A DNA stretch of 63,530 nucleotides, filler included. It is 10 parts of 10 records of this genome, joined end to end, with 100 filler letters (N's around TTAATTAATTAA, not from the genome) between each part and the next. Parts side by side here need not be neighbours in the genome. Positions count along the whole stretch, not along the records: positions 53,128 to 58,089 come from SRR7504441_3335; 9 more parts are not named here. The stretch is one strand, 5' to 3'. Below, piece after piece: positions 9,009-60,768 of the stretch (position 1 is its first letter; every line of letters begins with the position of its first letter). Both the position numbers and the translations under genes were made by a program. Below the pieces are notes generated by a model, which saw only the letters and a program-made list of their open reading frames with translations, searched no databases and was not told the origin of the DNA.

Positions 9009-9108
9009 NNNNNNNNNNNNNNNNNNNNNNNNNNNNNNNNNNNNNNNNNNNNTTAATTAATTAANNNNNNNNNNNNNNNNNNNNNNNNNNNNNNNNNNNN
9101 NNNNNNNN
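9009..9108. other. Artificial contig linker 44N-TTAATTAATTAA-44N; also at 12638, 16741, 24734, 32548, 36259, 45260, 53028 and 58090 (100 nt each)
   Basis: Identical spacer with stops in all six frames, present nine times; genes are truncated at its edges. Confidence 0.98.
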
Positions 9109-12257: not shown

Positions 12258-12737
12258 TCGCATCAGAAGTTAGAAGGCTGTGGCTCGACCTCGATTGACT
12301 TCTAAGTGTAAAGGGGCTTCCGGCAGTGCACCGTTCTCAACAGAACTCATTGTAACACGCTGAGATCGTCATTGTGGGTGTGTGGGTCGGTGGGTACAGT
12401 ATTCCCTGCACTCGTGAGGCTTGAGGATTAATTAAATCTATTGACGATGTTAAATCTACTGAGGATCCTAAATCTTCGACTAGGTAATTCAAATGAGCGC
12501 TCTACGGAGGGTTGATCAATCAGCTCTAGATACATAGTACTCTAGATCTCACACTCTCGCACTCTCAACACACGTCAACAGTCACTCAACAATACCGGTA
12601 CGTACGAGTACATGATTGTATAGGCACATAAGTTTGTNNNNNNNNNNNNNNNNNNNNNNNNNNNNNNNNNNNNNNNNNNNNTTAATTAATTAANNNNNNN
12701 NNNNNNNNNNNNNNNNNNNNNNNNNNNNNNNNNNNNN

Positions 12738-16667: not shown

Positions 16668-16840
16668 TGCTAACCTCCGCATATGCTACGCATATGCATG
16701 CAGCTCCCGAGTACTCCCGAGCGGCCCTCCCTGCACAGCCNNNNNNNNNNNNNNNNNNNNNNNNNNNNNNNNNNNNNNNNNNNNTTAATTAATTAANNNN
16801 NNNNNNNNNNNNNNNNNNNNNNNNNNNNNNNNNNNNNNNN

Positions 16841-18296: not shown

Positions 18297-18965
18297 TTAG
18301 AAAGTGCTGTCGACCTTTTTGCCTTTCCCAACCCCCTCGTTGGTGATGATGTATCGATTCTCTCCATTCTTCCCCGTCTTTGAAGTGTAGATCTTGCACC
18401 ACTCCTGATAGTTGATCTTCTGATCGCCTGCAACAGCAGTGACCCTGAGCTGTCGACAGGTTTACGCACTGTCCCGATCCCAGGAGTCGAAGCTACCAGG
18501 CCCAAAGACGGCCTCCCACTCGGCCCTATCCACCACCCCGTCTGCCCGCAGTGAGCACCGCAGCTGCACGCCTTCGCGGCACCTCCGTTGGAGTCTAGCT
18601 CTTGGAACAGTTTGGCCCACTCCTTTTTAGACACGTTCCCTGAGTCATTCTGCCCCGGACGAGCTGCACCAGCCGCCCAGCCCTGCCGCACCTTGTCGGC
18701 GACATCGTAGCCCCTCCGGCCGATCTTGGCCTGACACCACTGGGTCTCCCGGCTCGCCTGGGGCTGGGCCGCACCTCGAATTCGCCTTTAGTCATGTGTG
18801 TGCCAGAGTACCGCCGGCCCTTCATGTTCCGCTGCCCAGCCCGCTCCAGGGGTCCCGACACGGTGGCACTCACATTCGCGCTCGCAATGTTATGGAGGCA
18901 GCCGTGGGAGCAGCTGTGGCCGGCCACTCAGCCATGCCCCTGGCCGGGCGCCACCCGCTGCCCAT
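18297..18965 (-). CDS. Small multi-EF-hand Ca-binding protein with N-terminal MGSGCS (myristoylation/palmitoylation-like), intron-rich
   Basis: ATG GGC AGC GG|intron|C TGC TCC; EF-like segments NDSGNVSKKEW, FQELDSNG..VVDRAEW and DQKINYQEW. Confidence 0.65.
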
Positions 18966-19054
18966 CGTCCTCCGCCCCCTGGATCCTTGAGGGCGCCGCA
19001 CCTCAGATCAGGGCCGCTTTGGGCCACAGGATCAAAAGTCCGTTATTTGATCAG

Positions 19055-19954
19055 ATGCTGCGGTGCTCGGGGGTGGTCGTGACGACGCTGCTGGCAGCGT
19101 CTCTGTCGTCGCCACCGGACTACCGCAGCACGGAGGAGCTCCATGCAGCGCCCGGCGGCGAGTGCCTGGGAGAGTTCCGCGGCCACCGTCACAGCCTGGA
19201 CTACTCGTACCACCGGCGCTACTCGGCAACCCGGCAGCTGCTACAGGACCGGATAGTCAGGCGGCTGCTGCGCGCCACCGTCCGGGACGCGCTCACCGGT
19301 GCCATCTGCGACCGGCCGGCTGGCCGGCCCTGGCTGGTCTTCACTGCCGGGCCGATGGGGGCCGGTAAGAGCAGCTTTTTGGGCTGGGCATCCGAGAGGA
19401 GACACTTCCCGCTGGCCGCGTTTGTGCGTATTGATCCGGACCAGATCCGGTCCGAGCTGCCGGAGATGGCAGGCTACCTGGCAGCTGCCCCGGAGGCGGC
19501 GGGCCGGCTCACCCAGAAGGAGGCCGGGATGGTGCAGGAGCTGGCGATGCTCGAGGGTCTCCGGCAACGGCAGAACGTGCTGGTGGAAGGCTCGCTTCAG
19601 GACAGGTCCTGGCACGCTCGGCTGTTTGCTAGGGTCCGGGCCGAGTACCCGGCCGTGCGGATTGGAATCTTGTACGTGACGTGCCGAGCGGAGGAGGCGT
19701 TATCTAGAGCAAAGCGCAGGGGAACGGGGACGGGTAGGGCAGTGCCAAGGCAGGCTGTGCTAGACTCGATTGAACGGGTGCCGCGGGCCGTCGAGGCGCT
19801 CTCTCCGCTGGTTGATTTGACGGTCACGGTTAGCACGGATGGGTCGGAGCCGGTGCTGACCACGGAAGGCGAGACTTGGGGCACCTTCGCCCGCCGGTGG
19901 GATCAGGCCTGCGTGGCAGCCCCGGACCTAGCCTCGAGCACGGCGCCTACTTAA
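19055..19954 (+). CDS. Zeta-toxin-like P-loop kinase domain protein, intronless
   Basis: VFTAGPMGAGKS Walker A, IDPDQIR, NVLVEGSL, RAKRRGTGTGRAVP. Confidence 0.8.
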   Translation: MLRCSGVVVTTLLAASLSSPPDYRSTEELHAAPGGECLGEFRGHRHSLDYSYHRRYSATRQLLQDRIVRRLLRATVRDALTGAICDRPAGRPWLVFTAGPMGAGKSSFLGWASERRHFPLAAFVRIDPDQIRSELPEMAGYLAAAPEAAGRLTQKEAGMVQELAMLEGLRQRQNVLVEGSLQDRSWHARLFARVRAEYPAVRIGILYVTCRAEEALSRAKRRGTGTGRAVPRQAVLDSIERVPRAVEALSPLVDLTVTVSTDGSEPVLTTEGETWGTFARRWDQACVAAPDLASSTAPT

Positions 19955-24598: not shown

Positions 24599-25169
24599 CG
24601 CCTCGCAACTCCCGGAAAATAACGGACATCCCGGCTGGACAGGACATGTTTGGGTTCGAGGGCGCGGTGGTGGAGCATCCCCCGGAGCAGCCTGCCACAC
24701 AGATGTCCTTCTGGTCCCGCCAGGCCGCACCGANNNNNNNNNNNNNNNNNNNNNNNNNNNNNNNNNNNNNNNNNNNNTTAATTAATTAANNNNNNNNNNN
24801 NNNNNNNNNNNNNNNNNNNNNNNNNNNNNNNNNTTACAGGGGGTGTAGCTTGAAACACTGGCATGTATGCTTAATGTATCCCGGGAGGCTTTCCAACGAA
24901 CCGTTGTGGTGTGACACGAGTCGAGAAAAAATGCAGTCTGTACGGTACAGGTACTTGAATACCTTGTACAGGTACATCATTCTTCTCCACCTGTTGCCTA
25001 CAATTCTGGACCAGCACGCGCCATAAACTGTCCACTTTTCTTTTTTTTTTCGCTGGAAGTCTCACCATTTTTTGAAGCCCGCGGTCGCCTCGGAGGTGGA
25101 GCAACCTCGGCGAGCTGCGCGCCCCTCCAGCCCCGACACAGCTGCCTGCCGGAGGCGCACGACTGAGGG

Positions 25170-28100
25170 ATGGACCTGCCGGCTGGCGCCATGCCTGGCG
25201 CTTCAAAGCGACCGGCGCTTGGGGAGCTCGGTCCGAACGCCGGGAGGTCGAGTCCAAGCAAGCAGGCCCGGCTGGACCCGCCGTCCGCCAACCCGTTCGT
25301 GGCTCTGCTAGCGGCGGCTGGAATGAGCCCGCAGGCCGGGCGGATGTGCTGTCCCGACGTGCTCCAGTTCCGCCGGACGGTGGAGCGAGCCCTGCTGGCA
25401 GACCCCGAGCGGCTGACCGAGTTCGTGGCTGGGATGCGCGAGCTGTTTGCCGACCGCGAGCAGTTCAAGGCCCACTTGCTCCCGAGCCTGTCCCGGGGCC
25501 AGGCCGGGGCACAGGACTCGCCGGTGAGGTTGCTGCTCGGAGTGCGGGCTGTGCAGCCGGGGCTGGTGGAGCTGCTGGTCGAGTCGATGCTCGAGTTCCT
25601 GGATGACGAGGCCGAGGGCACCGGCAACCTGACCTGGCTGCTCCTCTCCCAGCTGCGGTGGCTGGACTTCCCAGTGGCTGACCAGCCGATCATGGAGAGG
25701 CTCCAGGAGCTGCTCACCATCCTCACCGGAGGGCTGCAGCACGAGGTGATTGCGCTCCTCCCGGAGATCCTGCCGGCCGCCGCACACGACACGATCAGCG
25801 CCGCGCTGCTGGAGCTGATCGAATCCGACTCCAGCTGCATCCGGCCGGCGCTCGATGCGTTTGCCAGCTTTGAGCTCTCAGAAGATGTGCTAGCGCAGGT
25901 GATCTCGGCGGCCACTCGGGCACTCGACTCAGCATGCCTGAACGAGGTGCCGTGCATCGTGCGGTTCTTGGTGAACAACGCGCCGGACGATTCGATCAAG
26001 GCCGTGCTCGCGTCGATGCGCTCCAAGCTCAACATAGGCCAGATGGAGCAGCAGCAGCCCGAGATGTACCAGCAGTCTCAGCTGCCCAGCGCTGCCACCC
26101 AGAGCGCGGGCAAGCGCGATCTCATAGCGCTAGTGCTAGAAGCGCTCCGACATGGGCTGCTCTTCCGCCCGAGGTCAGCGGTTGCGCTGCTAAAGGCGAT
26201 CGAGACAGCGGATCGTTCGATGCCAGTGGACGTGTGGGTGCTGCTGGTGGCCAGCACAATCAGCACGGCCAATAAACTTGCGGTCAAGCTTTTCAAGACC
26301 AAGATAAGCTCAGGCCAGTTTCACATCAACCTGCTCACCGAGGCCATCCAGGCCGCCAAGCCGGCGCTTGTAGAATACTTTGGGGCCCTGCTCGCCCTGG
26401 CGGAGCAGCTGGCCCGGTCAGCGATGCAACCGAGCCACCGGCGGGCCGCAGTGGACCTGTACACACTAGCTTTCGTCGAGTTTGATGGCGGCTTCCACAG
26501 CCAGCAAGTGCTCGCGCTTCTGATGGGCCACGCCGGGTCTGGGGCAGCGAGTGAAGTTCAGGTGGGCTTGGACGCGCTGCTCGCGCTGTTGGGCAAGTGC
26601 CGGGGTCGGCTACAGCAGCACCGGGCGCATATCAGCGGGGTACTGGACTTTGTGGACCAGTTCCAGAGAGAGCAAGTGCATCAGGTGTTCTGGTTCTTCT
26701 GCAGGCTTCCGGACGGCGAAGACCAGGAGCTGCACATAATGGTGAGAAAGCTGCTTGCAAGCAGCCAGGCTGGAGTCAAGCAGCTAGGGCTTGTGGCCGG
26801 GCTAGCGCTAGTGAGCGGGTGGTGCCTGCACGAGCAAGAGGTGACTGGGTCCGAGCTATCCCAGGGGATAGAGATGCTCGGGATGGCGGTCGGCTGCTGC
26901 AGGGAGGACAGCAACACGGCCCAGCTTAGCTTCCTCTACGACAGGCTCGCCACGCTGCTCCAGAAGGCGGCTCGGCCACACCCTGCTGTGCTCGAGTGGC
27001 TCAACGACCAGCTCTGCGGGGATATCTTCATGAAGTGGCTCGAAGAGCTCACTCCCGGCGGCAACGTATCGGCCGAGCACCAGATTCTTGGGTGTGTCGA
27101 TGAGGTTCGGTTCAGCATCGACGGCAAAGACGCCGCGATGGCCGTCTCACTCGCGGCCAATGCCACTCCATCGAATCTGCTGCTGCCTCTGTGCAGCCAC
27201 TTCAGGCTTTACTGTGCTGTCTCGCTCGCTCGGACTGAGTCGCCGCTGCTCCCGGAGCTCGATGCGCTGCTCGGCTGCCCAGTCCACGCCTTCGAGAAGC
27301 TGGACACCGACGATTACCTGACGATGCCGCCCCGCTCACAGGTAGCGCTTTGCGACACAGTGTTTGCCACTGTCTGCTGGTTCCGCCAGCTGCTCGAATC
27401 ATTCGGCCCGACTGCATTGATGTCTCCTGAGATCAGAGGCAAGTCGATCCAGCGACTGGGACACATCCTGGAGCTCGAACAGGAGCTCGAACACTACACT
27501 GCCATCTTGCCGGGCTGGACTCCCGTATCACAGCACTCAGAGATGCAGCCACAGCGCGACCCGCCAAGAGGAGGGAAGGGATCGAAGGAGCCAAAGGAGC
27601 CAGCCGAGAAGCCAAAGATCGAGAAAGTCGCTATCGGGAGTGGCTTCAAGCGACACTACCGGCGGTTGGCCCCACAGGCCATCTGCACGATGCTCCGGTG
27701 CATCGACAAGGCGTTGGTGCTAGAGCAGCAGGACACCGAGGGCGTGGCCGAGTCCGAGCTCACGCTCACGGTCCCAGTCGCCGAGGCCCTACTTCAGGAG
27801 CTCAGCCTCCAGCTCAAGACTACCCTCCGCAAAGCCTCGCGCGCGCTCACGCCGTGGCCACCGTCAAAGTCGACAGCAATCGAGCAAGCTGGGTCCCCCG
27901 AGCCGGAGCCGGCCGAGCTATGCCGCGAGGTATGCCCGGTGCTGCCTGGACTGCTCCAGTGGGCGGCATCGGCTGCGGCCGAGTGCTGCATCGGGCCGCT
28001 GTGCGACTGCTTCAGCGAGGTGTGCCGCTACGCTGCTCTGCTCTCCGGCGACGAGCAACGCAAGCTCGTCGACGCTCTAATGGCGGGTTGGACCGAATTC

Positions 28101-29210
28101 GAGAGCCTGGACCGAGTGTTTGAGTTTGTGCACTCGGAGCTAGTCGAGCCGAATGCGCTTGGGACTGGCCAGATGCTCAGAGTGCTCGGGCTGCTCTCAT
28201 CGCTAGTGCAGCTTGCCAAGTCACTCGAACCCGAGGAGACTGTCAAGAGGCTTTCCAACTGTGCAAGTGACGCAGCCTGTAAATTGCTCGGGGCGCCCAG
28301 TTGTGCCGAGGCTAGCCCGGCCCAGCTTGCCGAGTTGTTGGGGTACTTCGTGCAGCTGGCACCGGAGAAGGTCCCTGCGATCCAGAGTGTTGTCGATGAG
28401 ATCAAGATCAGGGTGTCCGGAGAGACTCCCCAGGACGAGATGCCCGACCGGCTAGCAGCAGCCCAGGCGACCGGACTGCTCCCAGTCTTCCTCAAGGTCG
28501 CCACTGAAGCTCTGACCTCGGAGTTCAGCGCAGCGACTGCAGCGCTAGAGGCTCTCCGAAAGGATAAGCACGCCCAGGACGACGATGATGTGAGCCTAGC
28601 CGTGGAGCGGCTGCTGGATGAGAGTCTGAGGGACTCTATCAAGCTGCTCAAGGAGCTGAGCCCGTGCTGCCAGCAGGCGGTCCAGGCGTGCGGGATTAAG
28701 CAAAAGGAGGTGCTTGCAGTCATGCTCAGGCAGATTAAGCCCTGCCTAGACGCGTTGGTCAAACTGATGCCCGAACTGGGGCCATTGACACAAGACTTTC
28801 CAAATAAAGTGATCCTGGTGCTCAAGGCGATGCAGAAAGCCACGCGGCCGTTCCACGCATTCTGCAACTCGGCCAAGGAGACCAAGGACGCGGTGCTGCT
28901 CAAGCTTGTGCCCGGGATCAAGCGGCAGCTCGAGACGATGATGGCAAAGGTGCAGGCGATGGTTAAGAAGATGGGCTACTCCAACCACTGCCAGCAGCTC
29001 AAGAGCAAGAACATGGAGGGACACGAGCTCGCTTCCCAAGCGAGGATATTCGAGCCGGCTCTGCCTGAGTCGGACCCCGATGAGGGCGAGTACGCGGGTG
29101 AAGGGGAGGACGATCAAGAGGGGGAGGACGAGTCGGGAGATGACGATTATCAACAGGACGACGACACAATTGAGCTGGAGCCGGTGGACGGCCAAGACGA
29201 GCTCAACTGA
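25170..29210 (+). CDS. FANCD2: Fanconi anemia group D2 protein, intronless
   Basis: 1346-aa helical ORF; LLLSQLRWLD, ELHIMVRKLLAS (monoubiquitination-site motif, Lys codon 26748-26750), LDALLGCP, KNMEGHELASQ followed by an acidic tail. Confidence 0.9.
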   Translation: MDLPAGAMPGASKRPALGELGPNAGRSSPSKQARLDPPSANPFVALLAAAGMSPQAGRMCCPDVLQFRRTVERALLADPERLTEFVAGMRELFADREQFKAHLLPSLSRGQAGAQDSPVRLLLGVRAVQPGLVELLVESMLEFLDDEAEGTGNLTWLLLSQLRWLDFPVADQPIMERLQELLTILTGGLQHEVIALLPEILPAAAHDTISAALLELIESDSSCIRPALDAFASFELSEDVLAQVISAATRALDSACLNEVPCIVRFLVNNAPDDSIKAVLASMRSKLNIGQMEQQQPEMYQQSQLPSAATQSAGKRDLIALVLEALRHGLLFRPRSAVALLKAIETADRSMPVDVWVLLVASTISTANKLAVKLFKTKISSGQFHINLLTEAIQAAKPALVEYFGALLALAEQLARSAMQPSHRRAAVDLYTLAFVEFDGGFHSQQVLALLMGHAGSGAASEVQVGLDALLALLGKCRGRLQQHRAHISGVLDFVDQFQREQVHQVFWFFCRLPDGEDQELHIMVRKLLASSQAGVKQLGLVAGLALVSGWCLHEQEVTGSELSQGIEMLGMAVGCCREDSNTAQLSFLYDRLATLLQKAARPHPAVLEWLNDQLCGDIFMKWLEELTPGGNVSAEHQILGCVDEVRFSIDGKDAAMAVSLAANATPSNLLLPLCSHFRLYCAVSLARTESPLLPELDALLGCPVHAFEKLDTDDYLTMPPRSQVALCDTVFATVCWFRQLLESFGPTALMSPEIRGKSIQRLGHILELEQELEHYTAILPGWTPVSQHSEMQPQRDPPRGGKGSKEPKEPAEKPKIEKVAIGSGFKRHYRRLAPQAICTMLRCIDKALVLEQQDTEGVAESELTLTVPVAEALLQELSLQLKTTLRKASRALTPWPPSKSTAIEQAGSPEPEPAELCREVCPVLPGLLQWAASAAAECCIGPLCDCFSEVCRYAALLSGDEQRKLVDALMAGWTEFESLDRVFEFVHSELVEPNALGTGQMLRVLGLLSSLVQLAKSLEPEETVKRLSNCASDAACKLLGAPSCAEASPAQLAELLGYFVQLAPEKVPAIQSVVDEIKIRVSGETPQDEMPDRLAAAQATGLLPVFLKVATEALTSEFSAATAALEALRKDKHAQDDDDVSLAVERLLDESLRDSIKLLKELSPCCQQAVQACGIKQKEVLAVMLRQIKPCLDALVKLMPELGPLTQDFPNKVILVLKAMQKATRPFHAFCNSAKETKDAVLLKLVPGIKRQLETMMAKVQAMVKKMGYSNHCQQLKSKNMEGHELASQARIFEPALPESDPDEGEYAGEGEDDQEGEDESGDDDYQQDDDTIELEPVDGQDELN

Positions 29211-32393: not shown

Positions 32394-32767
32394 TCCGCGT
32401 TGATGGTGTATAGGTACGTTATAAGGTTGATGTAAAAAGTGCACGCGTATAGGTACATGTAACTGGTTTCAGTGTCCGACATTGGCTTGGCGTACTTGAG
32501 TAATCAAAATTAATATAAATCAAATAAGCCATAGTTTTGAGCCATGCNNNNNNNNNNNNNNNNNNNNNNNNNNNNNNNNNNNNNNNNNNNNTTAATTAAT
32601 TAANNNNNNNNNNNNNNNNNNNNNNNNNNNNNNNNNNNNNNNNNNNNTCGCACGCTTACGTAATTTATTTTGTTAGACATGTACGTAAGGTTAATGGAGG
32701 TATAATGGAGGTACATGTACATTGATAAATTTACCATTGATTAATTTGATTTACAATAAATTGATTA

Positions 32768-36258: not shown

Positions 36259-36358
36259 NNNNNNNNNNNNNNNNNNNNNNNNNNNNNNNNNNNNNNNNNN
36301 NNTTAATTAATTAANNNNNNNNNNNNNNNNNNNNNNNNNNNNNNNNNNNNNNNNNNNN

Positions 36359-39298: not shown

Positions 39299-42200
39299 CT
39301 ACATGGCTTGCACGACATGTTGCTGCTGTTTTAGAGAGTTGAACTCCTTCAAGAGGCTACTGAGCTCGTGGCGGAAGGTTCGGACCTCCTCGTTCTTACG
39401 AGCGATGATCTCTTCGTATTGCGTCTGCGTCAATCTCGAAATCTCATTGGCCTCATTCGCAAGTTGCAGCCTGCATCACACAAGACACTCAGTCCACTGG
39501 TGGTAACCAGACACTCACCGCTGAAGCTTGTTTTCTTGCTTCTTGTGACGAAGCTCCATTGCCTCTACTTGAGATTGCAAAGCTGAGACCTGCAGTCAAC
39601 AAGCTGAGAACCACCTCTCATGCCACCCAACACCTCGGATGTCGCGGTCGTATCAGTCGGTGACTCCACGAAGATCGACTTTCGTGCCCTCTCGGCGTCC
39701 TGGTTCCGGAGCGTGTGTACAGTCGCAGGTTTGGTAGGTGCGGCCGGCGGCTCGGATTGAGCTGCTTCTTTTGGCACCAAACTATTCGTGAGTTTGGTCA
39801 GGTTGATTGTGTTGGTCAGATGTTGGATCTCGACGGCATGTCGGTCGGCCATCCTCTGCAGCTCAGCATTCATGTCTTTTGAGATCCTCTGCTGCTTATC
39901 GGAGCTAGCGGCCTCAAGCGCCGCCACCTCCTCCCGGTGCTGTCGTCGCAGCACTTGCATCTGCGCCCTCGTCTGCTCCGCCTCCGCCTCCGCCTTCAGC
40001 ATAGATTGTCTATATCTCTCTTTGTCAGCTTCTATTTCCCGGCGCAATGATAAGTCTGCGGTGGTGGAGAGCGTATGGTGTGCGGCTGCCTGCTGCAGGC
40101 CGCCTGCCAAATCCTGCTCGAGCTTCTGAATCTTCATCCTTGCCTGAACAAGCTGCTCGCCCAGGCCAGCATCTGATGCACTGCCTTGAGTGCCCTCCCC
40201 CGGCCCCTGGCGCTCCTTTTGCTGCTCCTCGAGCTCTTGCACCCGCTGGGCCAGTCGGGCCGAGCTCTCACGGGCCGCGTGCAGCTGCTCCTCGAGCTGG
40301 ATCCGGCCCGTGCCTGCAGCCTCCCTTTCGGCCTGCCCCTCCAAGATTTCAATCCTATTCTCGTACTCTCCCTTCATCCGCTCGTACTGCTGTCTCAAGC
40401 CGCGCATCGCCCGGTCGTGAGCCTCGTTGGCAGCCTGCAGGTGATCTTGAGCTTGCGCGAGCTCGCCCTTTAGGCTCTTGACTATCTTGGCCTCGGCTTC
40501 TGACGGTTTGACAGCCTGGATGAGCGACGCAATCGATTTAGGGTTCTTCTTGAGAGCAGCATCCAGGTTCTGGCACCGGGCCTCAAGCTCCTTGATCCGC
40601 TTCAAATCGGCAGCTCGTGACGCCTTGAGCATCTTTCCACCCTTACCGCCATTTTTGTCCTGATAGGTCACCACCATGTTGTCAGCCGCAGTTGCCAGCT
40701 TCTTCTTCAGCATCTCAATCAGGCCGCTTTGCTCGCGCAGCTTATCCTCATTGTCTGTTATCAGCTGTTGGTTCTGTCGGAACCAGTCCACCTTGCCCTG
40801 CGCTTCTCTCAGCCGACTCTCGTAATTCCGCTCCATCAGCTCCATCTGCTGCCTCAGCTCAAGAGCCTCTCTCTTGTAGGCTTGCTCTTTACTCGGAGAG
40901 TGACTAGGCTCGTCATCCAGCGAGGGCCGAGCCACCTCGGGGTCCGTCGGTCCAGCCGACTCCCTCGCCAGCTTCTGTGCGGCTGCTGCCTGCTCCCTGG
41001 CCTGCTGCAGCTGCAGTCGGGCCACTGAAGCCTGGTCCCTGGCCTGCTGCAGCTGCTGCTCCAGCTGCTCGACCCGCTCCACGTCGGGCGCGCTCGGCTG
41101 GCTGATCTGCTGCTGCAGCTGCTTGACTTGCTCCATCAGCCGCTTGTTCTGCTCCTGATACTCGAGCATGATCGACTCCTGAGTGCTCATCTCGCTTTTA
41201 AGCCGACGCAGCTCGCCCGGTGATACGGCCGATACCTTACCATGCAGCATGCGGTCTCTCAGCGAGCCTGTGGGCGAGCTGCCATGGGATCGCGGCACTG
41301 TCGGCGAGGCCCCGCGCGACTTGTGCGTGAACGGCGTGCTCGCCTTGGACCGGGGTATTCTAGTGGGCGAACCGCTGTGCCGTGCCGACATCGGGGTGGA
41401 CAGGACATAGGGCGTGTAAGCGCCGGACTGTGGTGGTTGTGGGGTGACGGGGACGGGTGTGATGGACTCCGCCACCGGCTTGCTCCGTTTGGGCGAGGTT
41501 CGGTGTTTCTTCTTGAGAGAATTTAGCGCAGTTGCCATCGTTTCTGGTGGCGTGGTGCTGCGCAGCGCCGCGATCGGATGCTCAGACATCTCAGGCTTCA
41601 TCAGCGGCGTCCCCCCGATCCGATCCGGGCTCGTGCGCGGTCTAGCTGCCGACTCGAGCAAGCCTGCCTTCCTCCGCGACCTGAACAGGGCACTCAAGCC
41701 AGCTAGGGCTGGGCTGGGCACTTTTCTGCCGACTCTAGGAAGCTCCGCTGCACAAAGTCGCCCAGGTGCTTGTACTGCTCCCAGAGCAGCGCTGTGCTCG
41801 GCGAGGCGCATGGCGTGCCCGGAGCCTCGCTGCTCGGCCTGTCCCATGGTCAGCCTGCTCACACCCGGAGCCTCACTCTTGCTGATTGAGTCGCGGCGGC
41901 GTGCAGACCGCAACCTGCTCGGGCCCAGCACCAGATGGTGACCAGTGCGCGGCCGCCGAGCTGCGCGACGGCGGCGTGGACGGGGGCGAGCCGTCTGTAG
42001 AGGTGAACTGGCCAGGGAAGGGCGTCTGGTTGATGGAGCAAGAGGCGGCGCCCGGCTCAAAGTTGGCGCGCGACTCAGCGTTGAGTACAGCCACAAACGA
42101 AAGCGAGCTCTCTTCGGGTTGTGCCACCGGCTGGGCCGCAGCTGGCGGGCTGGCCTGTGCTGCCATGTCGAGCACCGCCCGGAACGCCCCACCGGACAGC

Positions 42201-43117
42201 TCACTCTCAACCTGGTCCGCTGCAGCCGCGCCGACCGGCTCGGCGGGCAGGCCTGCGCAGTCACCAGCGCAGGAGCCGGCGGCCGGCTCCAGCGCTGGTG
42301 ACAGCCAGACTGCCGGAGCCGAGTCGGCATCAATGTGCTCTGATATCTCCGAGTCGGCCTGCAGCCCAGCTGGCTGCTGCTTACCGCCAGAGCTTCGCAT
42401 CTCGACTGGCGCGAGAGCGAACGAGCCCTGGAGCGCTGACTGGTCGGAAAGACCGATCGGCGGCCCGGAGCAGATGGGCTGCCCAGCGTGCAGGGTGACG
42501 GCGGCCGGGTCAGCTGGCCTGCTGTGCTCCTCCATGTCCGTGAAGCAACTGTCCACAGAGTCCTGCTCGATCTCCGAGGTCGCAGTGGTGTCCAGCGTCG
42601 AAGCGATCGTCGACATGAATGTGTCGTTCAGCGCAGCCGCCGCCGCCTCGCTGCGCGCCGCTCAGCCGGGTGGACCGGCCGGCCGCGCACCTGGCCTGCT
42701 GCTTGGGCCCGGGCTGCTCGTTCGCGAGTCCAGCCCCGGGCTCGCCGGCAGTCTCGGGCCTTTCCTGGAAGAACTGCTGCTTCTCCTGCTGTAGGTGAGC
42801 GGCCGGTTCGAGCGGCCGGGGCGGCTCACCTGCTCCTCGGCCTCCGAGTCCGTGTCTAGGTCGCAGCTGGCCAGCATCGCCAGCCCCGAAGTCTGGAGCG
42901 CCGAGTCGCCTGCGCCGCCTGACGGCCGCGGCTCGGAGGCTGCACCGTCCGAACTGGGCGACTCGAGCGCCCGGATGTGCTGCGAGGCCCGCACCAGCTC
43001 CGAGCCGCCCACCAGCGGCAGCTGCGGCTCGCCGGCGGCCGGCTGACTCGGCTCGATTGTCGGGGCTGCCAGGACTGGCGGCGCCTGATCGATCAGGACC
43101 GGTAGCTTGAGCGCCAT
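39299..43117 (-). CDS. CEP162: CEP162-like centriolar protein, spliced
   Basis: KVDWFRQNQQLI, DLKRIKELE..KKNPKSIASLIQA, LRQQYERMKGEYENRI, and C-terminal RKNEEVRTFRHELSSLL match CEP162 conserved blocks as I recall them. Confidence 0.75.
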
Positions 43118-44469: not shown

Positions 44470-45618
44470 TATGGCTCGTGCTCGCACGCCGAGAGGGTCG
44501 GTTTAAACCACCATCAGTCGACTCTTGTTTGAAGCAACTGGATACTACGACATGTACTACGAGTATCATGATTGTGTGTGTAATAACGGACGTTGCGATT
44601 CCGTCTTGGGCGGGGCCTTGTGGAGGGGGAAAGGATCAAGAGCGGGCTTTATAATAATTATATATAAATTCTTTATTGACGATAAATAGAAAATAGCATG
44701 CCGCATGTCTCCGGGCGGACGTGGGGCTCACCCGTACCGGGGTGTGCGTCCGTGACCGCGAGAGAATCTTGCGAGTTCACTTGGACTCACAGACGGCTTG
44801 GTGGCTAGCGGCTTGGTCGCATTCGCCCAGCTACCGGGATTTTTCTGTGAGCCCCAGCTACCGCTGAAGCTTATGTCAAGCTTGGTGGCGGGTTGAGCAG
44901 TTGAGAATACCATTTAATCTGCAACAGCCCGGATCAGTTCGCCAGCCACCCGCTGGGGCGATCAAGCAGCCGGTCAACGACAGACGAAATGGGATCACAG
45001 AAGTGCGCTAGCCAGCAGGCGCCGCGCCCCCTCGGGTAAGCTGCTTTGGCACGCACAGGGTCGGTCCACCAGAGACGCGACACCACAACCCCGAGGCGCA
45101 TGCCAGGTATATAGATCAGACCAGCTGGGCAAGCCCCGGCCTGGAGGAGGGCCGATCAGCGAGCGGGGCAACCGGACCCAGAGACCGCGCCGCATGATCG
45201 GGTCTTCCGGCCAGCACCATGGCCCAGCGACTGGCGGCGAGGGCTAGCGAGGGCCGAGTNNNNNNNNNNNNNNNNNNNNNNNNNNNNNNNNNNNNNNNNN
45301 NNNTTAATTAATTAANNNNNNNNNNNNNNNNNNNNNNNNNNNNNNNNNNNNNNNNNNNNTCATGACAACAAGTGCCCGATATGCAGGCTGAGGATTTTGG
45401 GTATTAAAATCGAAATCAATATTGTTGTCAGATCAGTTAGGTCGAGTTTATTTAGAGTTTATTTTAGTAATAGTGTGAGAGATTCGTGATGGCGAGAGCG
45501 CTGTAATGGGCGAATAAACGTAGAGATCGATGTATTAATTAATTAAGTCTTGCACAGACCACTTGAGATGATCATCTCGACTCTCAAGTTTGGAGCTCAA
45601 GTAACGAAGTATTAAAGC

Positions 45619-53027: not shown

Positions 53028-53127
53028 NNNNNNNNNNNNNNNNNNNNNNNNNNNNNNNNNNNNNNNNNNNNTTAATTAATTAANNNNNNNNNNNNNNNNN
53101 NNNNNNNNNNNNNNNNNNNNNNNNNNN

Positions 53128-53621: not shown

Positions 53622-55726
53622 TTAGTAGTCTCCCAACAGCGCCGCGTCACCCTCGCCGCCCATCACAAAATCCGCCCCGCCGTCCTCCTCCTCTGAGTCC
53701 TCGCGCACCGCTGAGGCCGCAACATGCATCTTGGCGCCGTAGATCGCCGCCTCCTCGGGGGTCAGCGAGGCCGCAAACTTGGCCGCGTTGTCGCGAGCTG
53801 CTGCCCGCTGAGCCTCCAGGTCAAACTTGGGCTCCTTTGCCGGCGGCTGGTCCTCGGCCGGCGGCTTTGTGTCAAACCTGCAGATCGGGTTGGTCTTGAT
53901 CCCAAGCAAGTCAACTCCCGAGCCAAACAGGTCGCGGATGTTCTTGTAACCGTACTTAATCATGGTCGGCCGCTCGAGCGAGAGCCCCCAGGCGATCACG
54001 GCCACGTCCTCGGGCAGGCCCATCGGCTGAAGCATCTCCGGTCTGAACATGCCGGAGTTGCCCACCTCGATCAGCGACTTGAGGTCAGGGTGGTAGCCAA
54101 AGATCTCCATAGAAGGCTCGGTGTAAGGGTTGTACGCCGGCTTGAACTTGGTCTCCTCGCGGGAGGAGACCATCCCTATGCGCACAAAGTACTCGGCGAT
54201 CACTCCCATCAGGTCGCCCAGGCACAGGTTGCGGTCCATCACCAAGCCCTCTATTTGGTGGAACTCTGCAAGGTGTGTCTTGTCCAGATTCTCATTACGG
54301 AACACGCGGTCTATCGAGAAATACTTCTTGGGCTCGAACTTGCCGCTCTTCATCGCCTCCTGCGCCGCCGCGTATAGCATCCGGGAGGAGACTGCCGTGG
54401 TGTGTGTCCTCAAGATTGTCTTGCGTGACTCCTCCTCAGACCACTCGTACTGGTAGCCGGTCGAGCCGTATCCGCCGGTCTGGTGCACCTGGCGCACCCG
54501 CTCCATGTACTCGGCCGGTATCTGGCCGCTCCGGGCCGGCTGCTCCAGAAAGAATGTGTCGTGTGCGTCGCGAGCTGGGTGTTGCTGCGGCTGGAAGAGG
54601 GTATCAAAGTTCCAGAACGAAGACTCGACGAACCGGGCCGTCGGCATCTCCTCGAAGCCCATCTCCAGGAACACGTTGCGGCACTCCTCGCGCACCTTGA
54701 GTAACGGATGCAGACAGCCACCCTGACCGCGCCGTCAGCTGACGTGAGCAGCGGGGCGACACCGAGGGGAGCACGCCCTTGGCAGACGTGAAGTTGAACT
54801 TTTTGAACTGAGCCTGCTTCCAGCTGCCCTTGGCGAGCATCTCGGGCGATATGTCCGTTGCCATCTTGGTGAAGGTTAGCCCGAACCGGCTCGCCTTTGT
54901 GATCTTATAATCCAAGATCCGGCTGTGCCCCGCCTGAGTCCGGCCCAGCCAGCCAGGCACCGCTCGGCCAGGCACTTGCGCTGCTTGAGCTCCTTGATCT
55001 CCTTGGGGTCCATCCCGGCCCCTCCGGTGGCCTGCACCACACGGAGCTTCTCCTGCAGCTTGTCTTGAACCGGCCCTGGCTGCTTTGTGATCAGCTTGGT
55101 CGCCTTGTCCATCGCCGCCCACTTGTTCTGCATCAGCTTGGCCTGCGCCACCTTCGGGTTCACACCCAGATCGCTGCACAGCCCCTGACCCGCCCTCGCC
55201 CCGGCCCCTCGCCCCCGGCCCACCTCGATCGCCTTGGCCGCAACTCCCTCCGCTGGCATCGCCGCCCACAGCTGCGGCCCAGTCAGCCCTCCGCGGCCCG
55301 GCCGGCGGGCACCCTGGCCTCGGGCGATCCGAGCTCGGCGTACTGGGCCGCCTCGTCCGTCAGCTCGAACACGTTCTTCTCCTCCGACTTGTCGAACGCC
55401 ACGTATTCCTCCGCCGCCAGCGACCGGACCACCCTCAGCAGCTCCTGCCCGGCCGGTCGGCCGACCGGCTGCGGAGGTGGCACCTCGTGGTCCACCCCGA
55501 ACGCCTTGGCCAGCTGGAGCGTGCTCGGCACCTCGCCGGCCTTGTTCACGGCGGCGAGCACCGCGTCGGGGCTGAGCGGCTCCGGCGGGGCGCCCGGTCC
55601 GAATTTGGAGGCCAGCCAGGCGGTCGGGTCGGCCGGCTGGTCGGCCGCAAGCTGCTTGACCAGGCCGTCGAACAGCGGCTCGACGCCGTGGCGCTCAAAG
55701 TACTCAGCTACCTGGGCTCCCGCCAT
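53622..55726 (-). CDS. FARSA: Cytosolic phenylalanyl-tRNA synthetase alpha subunit with N-terminal Dpy-30/RIIa-like domain and C-terminal extension, 5 introns
   Basis: [72 protein letters not shown]. Confidence 0.96.
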
Positions 55727-55791
55727 CGACGAGCGGAAGGCACGATACGATCGCGAGCCGTTGTTGCGGCGATCTGCCCGCGTCATCCGTC

Positions 55792-57492
55792 ATGCTCCGA
55801 TCCACGACGACCTGGCTGCTCTTGCTGGGGGCGGCGGCCGCTGTTGAGGTGCCCGAGCTGGACGGTCAGAGTTTCGACGCGTACCTGGAGGAGCACCCGA
55901 TGTTCATGACCATGTTCTACGCCCCGTGGTGCGGGCATTGCCGCCAATTCGGCCCCGAGTACGAGAAGGCGGCGGCCGCCCTGAGCGAGAGCCAGATCCA
56001 CCTGGTCAAGGCAGCCGCGTCGGCCCCGGGCCCGGCTTAGCCGCCGGCAGGTGGATGCCTCGGACAAGAAGAACATGCAGCTGGTCGAGAAGTGGGCCAG
56101 GGCCTGGGGGGCGGCTCACGGTTCGGCGGCAGGTTCGAGGTCCAAGGCTTCCCGTCGCTCAAGCTGATCCGGTGACCGCCCGGCCGGCCCGGGGCCCACC
56201 TGGCCGGGCAGCAACGGCAAAGGCACCAACTACGGCGGGGAGCGCACCGCCCAGTCGATCATTCAGTGCGCGGCCGGCCGGCGGGCGCGAGCCGGGCGCA
56301 GATACATGCTCAAGCGGGCCGGGCCGGCGGTGGCTCAGCTGCAGAGCCACGAGGAGGTGCCCGGCGGGCTGCGGGCCGGCCGATGCTGCGGGCAGCTGGA
56401 GGCGTTCAAGACTGAGCATCCTGCTGCGCTGATAGGCTTCTTTGAGGACCAGCAGTCTGCCGGGTTCCAGGCGGGGACCCCCAGCCCAGGGCCCGGATGA
56501 GCCGGCGGCAGGCGTTCGATGCGGCGGCGGTGCTGGTTGAGACGGTGGGGTTTGCTAATGTGGCCGATGCCGGGCTGCGGGATGCGCTCGAGGGCGAGCC
56601 GAACGGTGCAGTGATGCTCAAACAGTTCGACGAGCCTCTCACAAAGTACACCGGCGGGCTCAAGACCGAGGCGATCGCAGACTGGACCAGGCTGCAGGCG
56701 CTCCCAAAGCTGATCTCGTTCAACGAGAAGACTGCGCCGCAGATATTCGGTTGGCGCTAGGCTGTAGGAGCGTGCTGAGTGTGCGGGGCAGCGAGTGCCA
56801 TAAAGCTGCACCTGCTCGGATTCTACGACCGGGCGACCGAGCCTGAGCTGGGCAAGACGATGCTGGCGCTGGCAGACAAGTGGCGCGGCAAGCTGCTGTT
56901 CATCCACATCGGACCGTCGGAGGAGCAAATCTTTGCTTACTTTGGTGTTGCCAAGAAGAACACCCCGAGCGTCAGGATCGTCGACCTCTCGCAGGAGAAT
57001 ATGCGCAAGTATACCTTCGAGGGCAAGGAGCTGTCCCAGCCGCTGATCGAGCAGTTCGTCTCGAAGTTCCTGGAGGGCAAGCTTGAGCCAACTCTCCGAT
57101 CCGAGGAGCCGCCAAGGCAGCAGGAGGGCGACGTGCGAGTGGTGGTGCAGAAGACGTTCGAGCGGGAGGTAATCCAACCGGACAAGGACGTGCTGGTCCA
57201 GTTCTACGCCCCCTGGTGCAACCACTGCAAGGCGCTCAAGCCGGAGTACGAGGCACTCGCAAGTGAGCTCAAGGAGGTCAGCACACTCACGCTGGCAAAG
57301 ATCGATGCCGAGAAGAACGAGATGCCGCACGTCAAGATTGAAGGATTCCCCACGATCAAGCTGTGGCCAGCCGGCAAGAAGGAGGGCGAGGGGATCGCGT
57401 TTGAGGGCGACCGGAACAAGGCCGGGCTGCTTGCTTTCATCAAGGAGCACGCTACGCACAAGTGGTGGGAGCAAAAGCATGACGACTTGTAG
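55792..57492 (+). CDS. PDI: Protein disulfide isomerase (a-b-b'-a'), 7 introns
   Basis: Signal peptide, FYAPWCGHC and FYAPWCNHC, GFPT/GFPS, C-terminal HDDL. Confidence 0.95.
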
Positions 57493-58089: not shown

Positions 58090-58189
58090 NNNNNNNNNNN
58101 NNNNNNNNNNNNNNNNNNNNNNNNNNNNNNNNNTTAATTAATTAANNNNNNNNNNNNNNNNNNNNNNNNNNNNNNNNNNNNNNNNNNNN

Positions 58190-60768
58190 GCTGCTCAGCT
58201 GCCTCAAGCTCCTGCATCAGCGCCGTAGCCGCAGCCTGCTGCTTTTGCTCTTTGTATGCCCAAGCGTGCTTTAGCCTGGATGAGTAGACATGTTCTAGCT
58301 GCTCTGTCAGTGCTGCCACCTTCGCTTCCAGCATTTGCCTCTCCGCCTCAAAGGCAGGTGCGCTGTGCTCGCTCACATCCTGGCTGTTCTGTGCGAAAGC
58401 CAGCTGAGCAATTCCTGCTGTCCAGAGATCTACCGTCTCATCGCTTGGTGCAAATTTAGACCGAACAACTGGCTCCTTAGCTTCGGGCAGCACTGACAGC
58501 ACCTTCTTGTCCACTACGGCGACTTGGCCCTGTGCAACAGGCGGCCGAATCTTCGAGGAGATTTCGATTTCGGAGTCCTCCGGCTCCTCCTCAACAGCTG
58601 GCCGCTTCTTGTTCGAGATTTCAATTTCAGAGTCCTCGTGGAGTTGTTCAAATGCACTGTTGCGCTCACGAATGGCCGTCTCGAGCGCAGCCTGATGCTT
58701 AGCATTCTGCTGCTTGAGCTCGGACTCGAGAGATTCGATGGTCTCCTTGAGACTTTGAATCTCGCTGTTGAAAACTGAAGACACGCCCTCATCGTCGATC
58801 CCATTCTTCATCATCTCCATCAGGCTCGTGTTCTGCTCCTCGAGGAAGCGGATCCTGGCCTCACTCCTCGTATCGCCGGCACTCCCAATCGCCTCCATTG
58901 CCCACGAGATATCCGCAGTCTCATCCGCCTCCACACCCTCGAGCTGGGCAGACAGACAGTCCCGCTCCCGCCAGGCTTCATCCCGCTCGGCTTCAACCTC
59001 CGTAAGCCCATGGAGCAGCTCTTGGTTGCTCCGTCGCATCTCCTCCATCGAGCGCTCCAGTTCCTACCGCACTATCAGCCCCGAGACCGCCCGCCGCCCG
59101 CACCCTAAGGCTCGACTCCCTCTCATGCAGCATGGTCTCGCCCATCCTGATTGAAGCCTTGAGCGCCTCTATCTGATCCTCGGCCTGGCTGTCCTCGGGC
59201 TTGTCTATCTTCACCAGCATCTGGACTAGTTCCGAGATTCGGGCGTCTTTGACCGAGCATTCCTCTTCGACCTTCTTGAGTTTGGCTTGGACAGCCTCAT
59301 ATTCTTTCATGGGCACCTACAGCCATCCGGCATCAGCCGGCTCCGCCAGGGGCGGAGCACCTTGGACTCCTTGACCTCATTCACGTGAGCATATTGCACA
59401 ATGTTCTTGGCTCGGGCCGCGAACTCCAATGTGGAAAGAGTCTCGTTGTAGTGGAGTGAGGCCGGCGTGACTGTGCAGATCATTGCAGTCCTGGTATTGC
59501 CCCCGAGCGACGGCTTGAGGATGTGGGTCAGCTTACACTCGCGGTAAGGCACATGCGAGCCCTGCCCCCGCAGTCAACACCCGGCACTGCATGCCAGTGA
59601 TCACCCCCGCAGTGCTCAGCGCATTGATCACTCGGCCCAACACGAGCAGACTCTTGTTTATGAACCCTGCTTGCACTTTCCGCTCTCCAACCGCCTGCGT
59701 CACACTCACTACCCGCTCCATAGAGCAAGTGGCGGGCGACAAGGCGGTGGGAGTGCAGCAAGCGCGCCGATGGGCATTCAACTGACCTTCGTGGTGGCAA
59801 TTCGTTCGGAGCCGGCCAAGTCAACTAGACTCAGTGTGGACCTGAGGGTCGGGGCGCATGGATCGCTCCTGTCCTGGGCTCAAGCTCGGGCCCGGCCACC
59901 GGCGCACCGGACACGTGAGATGAACTCCAGAACGAAAATCGAATGCGAGCGAGAACTAGTCCTGTTCATCTGGGTCTCACCAACCTGGCTTGCCCCGTGA
60001 GGCCAGCCCGCCAGCGGGAGCTGACCTGCCGGTTGGCCAGACCCTGCTGCAGCACAGCCACCACAGCATCGAAATCGTTGCACTCGATCTGGCGCACACC
60101 GGCCACGTAGATCCGGCCGCTGGTATCCTCACGAATTTTGAGACCGTCGTGGCTGCACTCAGGGCTCGCACGCGGCGGGCGGGCGGGGCGCGCCTGGCCC
60201 CAGTGAGCAAGTCGTTGATAACTTCGTTGTAAATCTCCATAAACGACACCGAAACCTGCCCCGCCAGCTCGCAGCCCGCCGCAGCCGGCGCCCGCCTTGA
60301 ACTCGATGTCCGGATGCCGCTGGATGTGTTTGAACGCGTCCTTCACCGCAAACTGGACGATCCCATCGGCCTGCTCGGTCCCGGTCATCGTGTACGTCTT
60401 ACCACTAGAGGTCTGCCAGCGGTCAGTCAGCCGCCGGCCCCCGGGCGGGCTACTTGGCCGTAGCAGAACAGCGTGCCGTTGATCCCCTTGAGTACCGAGC
60501 TGACCAGCTCCCGGCCCACCGCCGCATATACGTTGTCCGTCTGAACCTCAGGCCCGAAGACGTGGTCTGCCCCCGCCGATCGGCCCCTGGGGCCGAAACC
60601 GGCCCAACCGTAGGTGTACGAGACCCCTGCCTCGGCGCTGGCCAGGGTAGAGATGTTGTCCCCGCTGGGACATTTCCAGGCCTCTCCGCCACCCTCCCGG
60701 GTCTCCCGCTCGTTCAGCCCGCGCATGCGCACCGCCACCTTGATGTTCTCTGCCCCGCTCGCCGGCAT
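58190..60768 (-). CDS. N-terminal-motor kinesin (kinesin-7/CENP-E-like), 3'-partial, about 10 introns
   Basis: [65 protein letters not shown]; coiled-coil stalk. Confidence 0.9.

Follow-up and report, generated by a model that had tools for sequence, protein, structure and literature searches.

The window analysed here, a stretch of 63,530 bases with a guanine plus cytosine (G+C) content of about 60%, is a chain of ten separate contigs of 3.5-9 kb held apart by nine identical joiners (N44-TTAATTAATTAA-N44, with 44 N on either side), so that genes flanking a joiner are not necessarily linked. The genes of the window are eukaryotic, with Pfam matches to FancD2, PheRS-alpha, thioredoxin/PDI, Nol11 and an Exo_endo_phos domain. 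Genes for phenylalanyl-tRNA synthetase alpha (PheRS-alpha), for a protein disulfide isomerase (PDI) and for a kinesin motor region are interrupted by very short introns that have no polypyrimidine tract and carry an adenine at a nearly fixed place close to their 3′ end (Table 1). These introns, and the way in which their branch site may be specified, are the subject of this report; all results are drawn from the 63.5 kb of the window.

Nineteen introns of 36-44 nucleotides (nt; mode 41) were validated, all by gap-free protein alignment and six of them also by joints in RNA contigs. The RNA evidence comes from contigs of four RNA runs and concerns the 4962-base contig at 53128-58089 only, and stretches without RNA cover, which include introns 56266-56301, 56357-56395 and 56471-56511, count as no evidence either way. 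Against the homologues P0121 and P0122 (about 54-55% identity), the spliced PDI model shows no gap at any of its seven junctions, and its last exon matches Pfam Thioredoxin and Thioredoxin_6; the PheRS-alpha junctions are gap-free against P0003, P0001 and P0006, and the spliced kinesin model was aligned with P0322, P0271 and P0371. Fifteen of the validated introns have GT-AG and four GC-AG termini, and one GC-AG intron has been confirmed by an RNA joint at 56009-56048, where a 40-nt skip with 3 nt of slack has GC..AG at 56011-56050 as its sole fitting placement; a GT six bases upstream of 56011 is excluded because the skip would then be 46 nt, while the RNA contig shows 40. GC-AG introns make up about 20% of every set considered (4/19 validated, and 10/55 and 26/118 predicted).

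The predicted sets were obtained with our own gene finder, which combines codon log-odds, GT/GC..AG termini, splice-site matrices (-3..+8 and -6..+2) and a length prior, and which ignores the intron interior. It returned 132 introns, 118 of them of 34-50 nt after one homology-refuted call had been dropped, and 55 with a good coding score on both flanks were set aside as being of "high confidence". All six RNA-confirmed introns are recovered, some of them being in the training set, and the length peak at 37-43 nt is present in a run without the length prior. Early passes without site models chained through non-coding DNA and produced many spurious "introns" of 55-300 nt, and the refined 34-50-nt class was used instead. 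As decoys, 325 segments with GT/GC..AG ends, a length of 36-44 nt and similar site scores were taken, 139 of which have at least 72% G+C.

An adenine lies 15 to 11 nt from the 3′ end (-15..-11) in 18 of the 19 validated introns, whereas the count after shuffling of the interiors averaged 6.1 and never exceeded 13. Such an adenine is also present in 46/55 high-confidence predictions (shuffle mean 25.6, maximum 36), in 97/118 predictions of 34-50 nt (61.7 and 76) and in 81/101 predictions outside the validated set (55.9 and 71), and in each set the observed count was reached by none of 2000 shuffles. At -12, -13 and -14 the adenine frequency in the high-confidence set is 0.27, 0.33 and 0.24, compared with 0.02-0.20 at other interior positions, and the profile is flat both in the decoys (0.14, 0.13 and 0.16 at -12..-14) and in the GC-rich decoys (0.09, 0.09 and 0.11). 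The adenine peak is thereby confirmed as real and as statistically robust within the window. A preliminary description of this DNA had reported an adenine 11-15 nt from the 3′ end in over a dozen introns and a lone adenine before the terminal AG in 56266-56301, 56357-56395 and 60256-60295, and had suggested plotting adenine frequency against distance from the 3′ splice site; both observations were borne out, the lone adenines lying at -12, -13 and -14, respectively, and the plot, run on the introns of the window, gave the peak just described.

The statements in that description that the introns have no polypyrimidine tract and that their 3′ ends are G/C-rich agree with what was found. Positions -10..-4 of the validated introns are 61% G, 27% C, 8% T and 4% A (35% pyrimidine), the longest pyrimidine run in -25..-4 has a median length of 2, and the sequence upstream of the branch zone is 49% pyrimidine and 9% T. 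The acceptor consensus is GGCAG/G (the slash marks the splice site), with C at -3 in 0.89, G at -4 in 0.71 and G at -5 in 0.62. G+C reaches 80% in validated introns, compared with 63% in the exons of high-scoring chains and 55% outside all chains; introns more GC-rich than exons are the reverse of the usual order. Predicted donors follow the consensus AG/GTGCGC or GTGCCC, with G at +3 in about 0.7, C at +4 in about 0.55 and C at +6 in about 0.5. The usual 5′ splice-site consensus is GTRAGT; donors that differ from it in this way would be expected to form a weak pairing with the 5′ end of a canonical U1.

Sequence also marks the site of the adenine. An unsupervised one-site-per-sequence motif search of -28..-5 converged on (G)G-C-T-G-A with a log-likelihood of 58.4, against 13.2-18.4 in ten shuffled sets. 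CTGA with its A at -10..-17 was found in 5/19 validated, 18/55 high-confidence and 34/118 predicted introns (shuffle means 0.2, 1.0 and 2.5) and in 11/325 decoys, and any T-N-A with its A in this range in 11/19, 33/55 and 73/118 (shuffle means 1.2, 8.4 and 23.1); sequence therefore contributes to the branch site in most introns. Among the 19 validated introns, five have CTGA, six another T-N-A, seven C-G-A and one CCCA, and the commonest pentamer, CTGAC, accounts for 10 of the 60 adenines at -15..-11 (zone A's) in the 55 high-confidence introns. Zone A's of validated introns are preceded by C at -3 in 70%, by T (55%) or C (40%) at -2, which makes 19/20 pyrimidine, and by G at -1 in 75%, compared with 46%, 21% T and 29% C, and 38% at their other intronic A's. 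The core is thus C-Y-G-A, and with T as its Y it has the form of a CTRAY-type branch site. In about 40% of introns the context would be expected to pair poorly with canonical U2. The PDI gene happens to be rich in branch contexts without T.

It is very improbable that the peak is a by-product of some other element (a protein site, for instance, or part of a longer 3′ signal) and that branching takes place elsewhere or at a residue other than adenosine. One of the 19 validated introns has no zone A, as such a reading would allow, but in seven introns the zone A is the sole adenine, the motif is the classical CTRAY branch consensus, and its position falls inside the usual branch-to-AG distance range.

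Branch-site readers of changed specificity have also to be considered, namely a U2 or SF1 tolerating C besides U at -2, combined with a G-tract factor in place of U2AF65, for which C-Y-G-A followed by a G-rich spacer would be a full-strength signal. Such readers would suit the near-constant pyrimidine at -2, the conserved G at -4 and -5, the G content of -10..-4 and a 5′ consensus that is likewise removed from the usual one. This explanation is nevertheless judged unlikely, as no small nuclear RNA (snRNA) or splicing-factor gene lies in the window, C-G before A is fairly frequent in GC-rich sequence anyway, and the U1 5′ end is reported, in passages of a survey of splice signals, to be unchanged in Aureococcus and Micromonas despite their abundant GC-AG introns (Iwata and Gotoh, 2011; PMC3033335).

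In the preliminary description, the branch A was suggested to be selected by a ruler from the 3′ AG only, without recognition of sequence and with the help of a loss of other adenines. Seen from the 5′ end, the adenine peak is 0.37 at +27 in the validated introns, compared with 0.32 at -14, and 0.27 and 0.25 at +27 in the predicted sets, compared with 0.33 and 0.32 at -13. In length classes with means of 36.8, 40.6 and 45.5 nt, the peak lies at -12/-13, at -13/-14 and at about -15 when counted from the 3′ end, and it shifts from +26 to +27..+30 when counted from the 5′ end, the added length being split between both sides of it. Alignment from the 5′ end gives a peak (+26/+27) no less sharp than alignment from the AG, and over this range of intron lengths a ruler from the AG is therefore not separable from one that starts at the 5′ site. 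In the shortest length class, alignment from the 5′ end gives the sharper peak (0.53 at +26), suggesting that some minimum distance between 5′ site and branch is required.

The scarcity of adenine allows a similar double reading. Outside donor, branch zone and acceptor, A makes up 4.7% and T 8.2% of validated introns (20 vs 35, p=0.058), and the same comparison in the high-confidence predictions gives 118 A vs 199 T (p=6e-6), while exons have 20% A. Both A and T are strongly depleted in the introns, and the sense strand has more G than C and more T than A; skews of A below T and of C below G run in the direction known for transcription-associated strand asymmetry. Because the skew matches this asymmetry and T is depleted too, the depletion of A need not be selection against decoy branch points, although selection against decoy adenines is possible. 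Of the model with a ruler from the AG only, what stands is a strong constraint on position, a real scarcity of A and, in all seven introns with a single interior A, an adenine at -12..-14; its anchoring at the AG cannot be told from anchoring at the 5′ end, and most introns have 2-5 interior A's. Contexts are degenerate, as was claimed, in the 8/19 validated introns that lack T at -2, while for most introns the C-Y-G-A core argues otherwise, and the view that the adenine is chosen "rather than by sequence" is not supported in view of the de novo C-T-G-A motif, its enrichment over shuffles and decoys, that of T-N-A, and the bias at -3, -2 and -1 (at -2, a pyrimidine before 95% of zone A's compared with 50% of other A's). 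The model as a whole therefore appears improbable, even though the single-A introns, the contexts without T and the excess of T over A are what it would lead one to expect.

Intron interiors have frequent GGCCGG-type palindromes and a mean minimum free energy of -18 kcal/mol, but they fold no more stably than dinucleotide shuffles (z-score -0.32 with p=0.26 for the 19 validated introns, and -0.28 with p=0.07 for the 55 high-confidence predictions), so that RNA structure is not supported as an organising principle. An introner-like family is not supported either, since pairs sharing a 7-mer in +7..-18 number 20/171 in the validated set compared with a shuffle mean of 18.4; in the high-confidence set the figure is 80 compared with 48.6, the excess coming from CCGGCTG, which adjoins the branch motif. 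Minor (U12-type) introns have a highly conserved RTATCCTT-like 5′ site and a TCCTTAAC-like branch site. This class was set aside, the 5′ consensus here being GTGCGC or GTGCCC and none of the 19 validated introns starting with the U12 motif.

Taken together, the introns are probably major (U2-type) introns with a position-constrained branch site of weak consensus, a G-rich spacer and no pyrimidine tract. They have GT-AG or GC-AG termini and are precisely removed, as is expected of U2-type introns, and lack the pyrimidine tract that is typical, though not universal, of this type; the system is accordingly filed as an unusual variant of major-type introns and not as a new kind of splicing. The host would be an intron-dense, GC-rich marine protist that holds its introns to a narrow class of about 36-44 nt. 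Four elements would make up each intron. A 5′ site AG/GTGCGC, where GC replaces GT in about 20%, would be followed by a G/C-rich body, then by a weak branch site, and last by a short G-rich spacer leading to GGCAG/G. The branch site would have the consensus (G)G-C-Y-G-A, and the distances of its A would be 12-15 nt to the 3′ end and about 26-30 nt to the 5′ end. Three weak cues in sum probably decide which adenine becomes the branch A. C-T-G-A may pair partly with U2, the short intron may impose a geometric window in which a minimum 5′ span is combined with the first suitable AG about 12-15 nt downstream, and there may be few rival adenines. Which factors read the 3′ region we infer, and the pyrimidine tract and its usual reader are probably unneeded because the spacer between branch and AG is so short.

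Several points weigh against an assignment to U2-type introns of this form. That the adenine of the peak is the branch nucleotide is something that we infer from the sequence. U2-type introns are expected to carry their branch adenosine in a YNYURAY- or CTRAY-like motif upstream of the 3′ site, yet T is missing at -2 in eight of the 19 validated introns (four with GCGAG, two with CCGAT and one each with CCGAC and CCCAC), and by textbook pairing rules these contexts would form almost no helix with the canonical U2 box. The validated intron 59317-59360 is an exception in position, having CTGAT with its A at -17, intron 60153-60193 has CTGAG at -7 besides GCGAG at -14, and 4/55 high-confidence introns have no A at all at -10..-17 (an absence that would also agree with a by-product). 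The splice-site matrices and length prior of the gene finder are self-trained; among its predictions there are certainly false positives, and it overlooks in-frame introns. Finally, the genes for U2, U2AF, SF1 and SPF45 are not in the 63.5-kb window.

A further-reaching version of the U2-type reading can be advanced only tentatively. It would have the pyrimidine tract dropped genome-wide in an intron-dense eukaryote, with 3′ sites defined by the G-rich spacer and by a branch adenine set by a two-sided ruler that measures about 26 nt to the 5′ site and about 13 nt to the AG; the roughly 40% of sites with S-C-G-A, being unable to form a canonical U2 helix, would then imply that U2 or SF1 has changed its specificity or that the bulged adenosine is chosen largely without regard to sequence.

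The features of the window are listed in Table 1. Intron 56266-56301, which the gene finder read through, gives a gap-free alignment once it is removed, and the in-frame 39-nt intron 55185-55223 (-), missed by the gene finder, was found through a 12-13-residue insertion relative to three homologues. In the kinesin gene, which lies on the last contig, the DLAGSE motif is followed near 59709-59786 (-) by an intron that exceeds the others in length (71 or 78 nt) and has a lower G+C content; neither GT..AG placement gives the loop length of the homologues, and this intron was left out of the validated set. A GC-AG call of the gene finder at 59782-59816 in the same gene is wrong. Intron density is very uneven, as the FancD2-like open reading frame (ORF) and the 1020-codon ORF are intronless, whereas the PDI gene has seven introns in 1.7 kb and the kinesin motor at least eight. 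One of the contigs, likewise eukaryotic, carries an ORF with a Zeta_toxin/AAA_33 kinase-like domain.

Table 1. Coordinates, strands and support of the features of the window (distances of candidate branch adenines are counted from the 3′ end of the intron).
Feature	Position	Strand	Length and termini	Candidate branch A	Support and remarks
Joiner	9009-9108
Joiner	12638-12737
Joiner	16741-16840
Joiner	24734-24833
Joiner	32548-32647
Joiner	36259-36358
Joiner	45260-45359
Joiner	53028-53127
Joiner	58090-58189
ORF, kinase-like	18644-19951	+	436 codons		Pfam Zeta_toxin/AAA_33 (E=1.5e-20)
ORF, FancD2-like	25167-29207	+	1347 codons		intronless
ORF	39568-42627	-	1020 codons		intronless
PheRS-alpha gene	53625-55741	-			Pfam tRNA-synt_2d; five introns
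PheRS-alpha intron	55445-55483	-			RNA joint, homology
PheRS-alpha intron	55272-55312	-			RNA joint, homology
PheRS-alpha intron	55185-55223	-	39 nt, in frame		homology
PheRS-alpha intron	54923-54960	-			homology
PheRS-alpha intron	54723-54762	-			homology
PDI gene, thioredoxin a-b-b'-a' type, C-terminal HDDL	55804-57489	+			seven introns, 36-42 nt
PDI intron	56011-56050	+	40 nt, GC-AG (donor AG/GCGSGC)	56039 (-12, CTTAG)	RNA joint, homology
PDI intron	56092-56132	+	41 nt, GT-AG	56118 (-15, CTCAC)	RNA joint, homology
PDI intron	56172-56211	+	40 nt, GT-AG	56198 (-14, CCCAC)	RNA joint, homology
PDI intron	56266-56301	+	36 nt, in frame, stop-free	56290 (-12, GCGAG), single interior A	homology only
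PDI intron	56357-56395	+	39 nt, in frame, stop-free	56383 (-13, CCGAT), single interior A	homology, gene-finder prediction
PDI intron	56471-56511	+	41 nt, GC-AG (donor AG/GCGSGC)	56500 (-12, ATGAG) and 56497 (-15)	homology, gene-finder prediction
PDI intron	56750-56791	+	42 nt, GT-AG	56778 (-14, CTGAG)	RNA joints (two runs, two studies), homology
Kinesin motor region	59317-60608	-			seven homology-supported introns
Kinesin intron	60567-60608	-			homology
Kinesin intron	60413-60453	-			homology
Kinesin intron	60256-60295	-	GC-AG (donor AG/GCGSGC)	lone A at -14	homology
Kinesin intron	60153-60193	-	GC-AG (donor AG/GCGSGC)		homology
Kinesin intron	59985-60025	-			homology
Kinesin intron	59562-59604	-			homology
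Kinesin intron	59317-59360	-			homology

As to the source of this DNA, the RNA runs that contain parts of the contig at 53128-58089 are all marine or seawater metatranscriptomes. The closest proteins in large collections are 83-86% identical for PheRS-alpha and 55-58% for PDI, and because of these values the source is not equated with Aureococcus or Micromonas. A PDI query returned no related DNA from metagenome, genome and viral contigs, a PheRS query against metagenome contigs gave a best identity of 72% and was not used for comparison of orthologous introns, and the FancD2-like ORF had no match in a word-indexed search. In the Atlas, the Nol11 cluster has Oomycota as its commonest phylum and the PheRS clusters are of mixed taxa, which are to be taken as leads only. 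Rfam and tRNA scans of the window yielded no RNA families and no tRNAs.

Branch points anchored at a set distance, together with loss of the pyrimidine tract, are described in the consulted passages of a comparative survey only for the intron-poor Yarrowia lipolytica, Trichomonas vaginalis and Giardia lamblia, where a nearly invariant branch motif stands 2-4 nt before the AG; according to the same passages, 3′ sequences are variable in all intron-rich species, and the poly-T tail is probably an ancestral feature (Irimia and Roy, 2008; PMC2483917). As far as these passages allow a comparison, the introns of the window resemble those of the three species in having no pyrimidine tract and a candidate branch A at a nearly fixed distance from the AG. 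They differ in that the genes are intron-dense, the motif is weak (CTGA in about one third) and the distance is 12-15 nt; the pattern by which the survey defines such genomes, few introns of which over 50% share one branch hexamer, is thus not seen, while its other mark, a fixed branch-to-AG distance without a tract, is.

The ultra-short introns of Paramecium, the Bigelowiella nucleomorph and dicyemids are AT-rich. In the same passages these lineages are credited with minimal 5′ signals and no branch-point signature (PMC2483917), and the introns of the window share with them a narrow and very short length class, unlike them being 80% G+C with a detectable branch motif. Intron density, a short length class, the 12-15-nt constraint, a weak motif and a G-rich spacer in combination fit none of the groups that those passages of the survey set out.

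Human introns offer another comparison. According to the portions of these studies that were available, short human introns with truncated pyrimidine tracts depend on SPF45/RBM17 and not on U2AF (bioRxiv 10.1101/784868; PMC8363638), and short GC-rich human introns have weak pyrimidine tracts and G-rich enhancers (PMC2481429). The introns described here are similarly short and GC-rich, with no usable 3′ pyrimidine tract and with G-rich sequence nearby, and these human introns may, on the evidence of those portions, be regarded as their closest functional analogue; in humans, however, such introns are a minority class beside canonical ones, whereas in the window the architecture appears to be the default.

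Among GC-rich marine microbial eukaryotes, GC-AG introns have been reported at 39.6% in Aureococcus anophagefferens and 22.2% in Micromonas pusilla (Iwata and Gotoh, 2011; PMC3033335), which the share of about 20% found here resembles; the passages of that report give no class of about 40 nt, no branch position and no absence of the tract. In the literature searched, no account was found of GC-rich, tract-less introns of about 40 nt in a marine protist, a point to which the intron tables of both surveys (PMC3033335, PMC2483917) may be relevant. Precedents thus exist for the separate features, and none was found for their combination in an intron-dense genome.

For annotation, a practical consequence follows from the fact that about one third of the introns are a multiple of three long and contain no stop codon (e.g. 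56266-56301, 56357-56395 and 55185-55223 (-), two of which three were missed by the gene finder). Reading through such introns, as happens with a standard gene finder or when ORFs alone are followed, adds G/A/R/P-rich insertions to the derived protein, and the proteins predicted from such metagenome bins would then carry false insertions of this kind. A splice-site score meant to rescue in-frame introns gave no separation from coding sequence, most of its 20 candidates looking coding and 56266-56301 being absent from them.

For the biology of splicing, the interest of these genes lies in the contrast that they form with published surveys, which, in the passages considered here, tie a fixed branch and loss of the tract to intron-poor genomes and hold poly-T to be near universal in intron-rich ones (PMC2483917). 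The organism to which the window belongs would be a natural test case for the minimum of sequence on which the major spliceosome can work, and for the nature of whatever takes the place of U2AF65.

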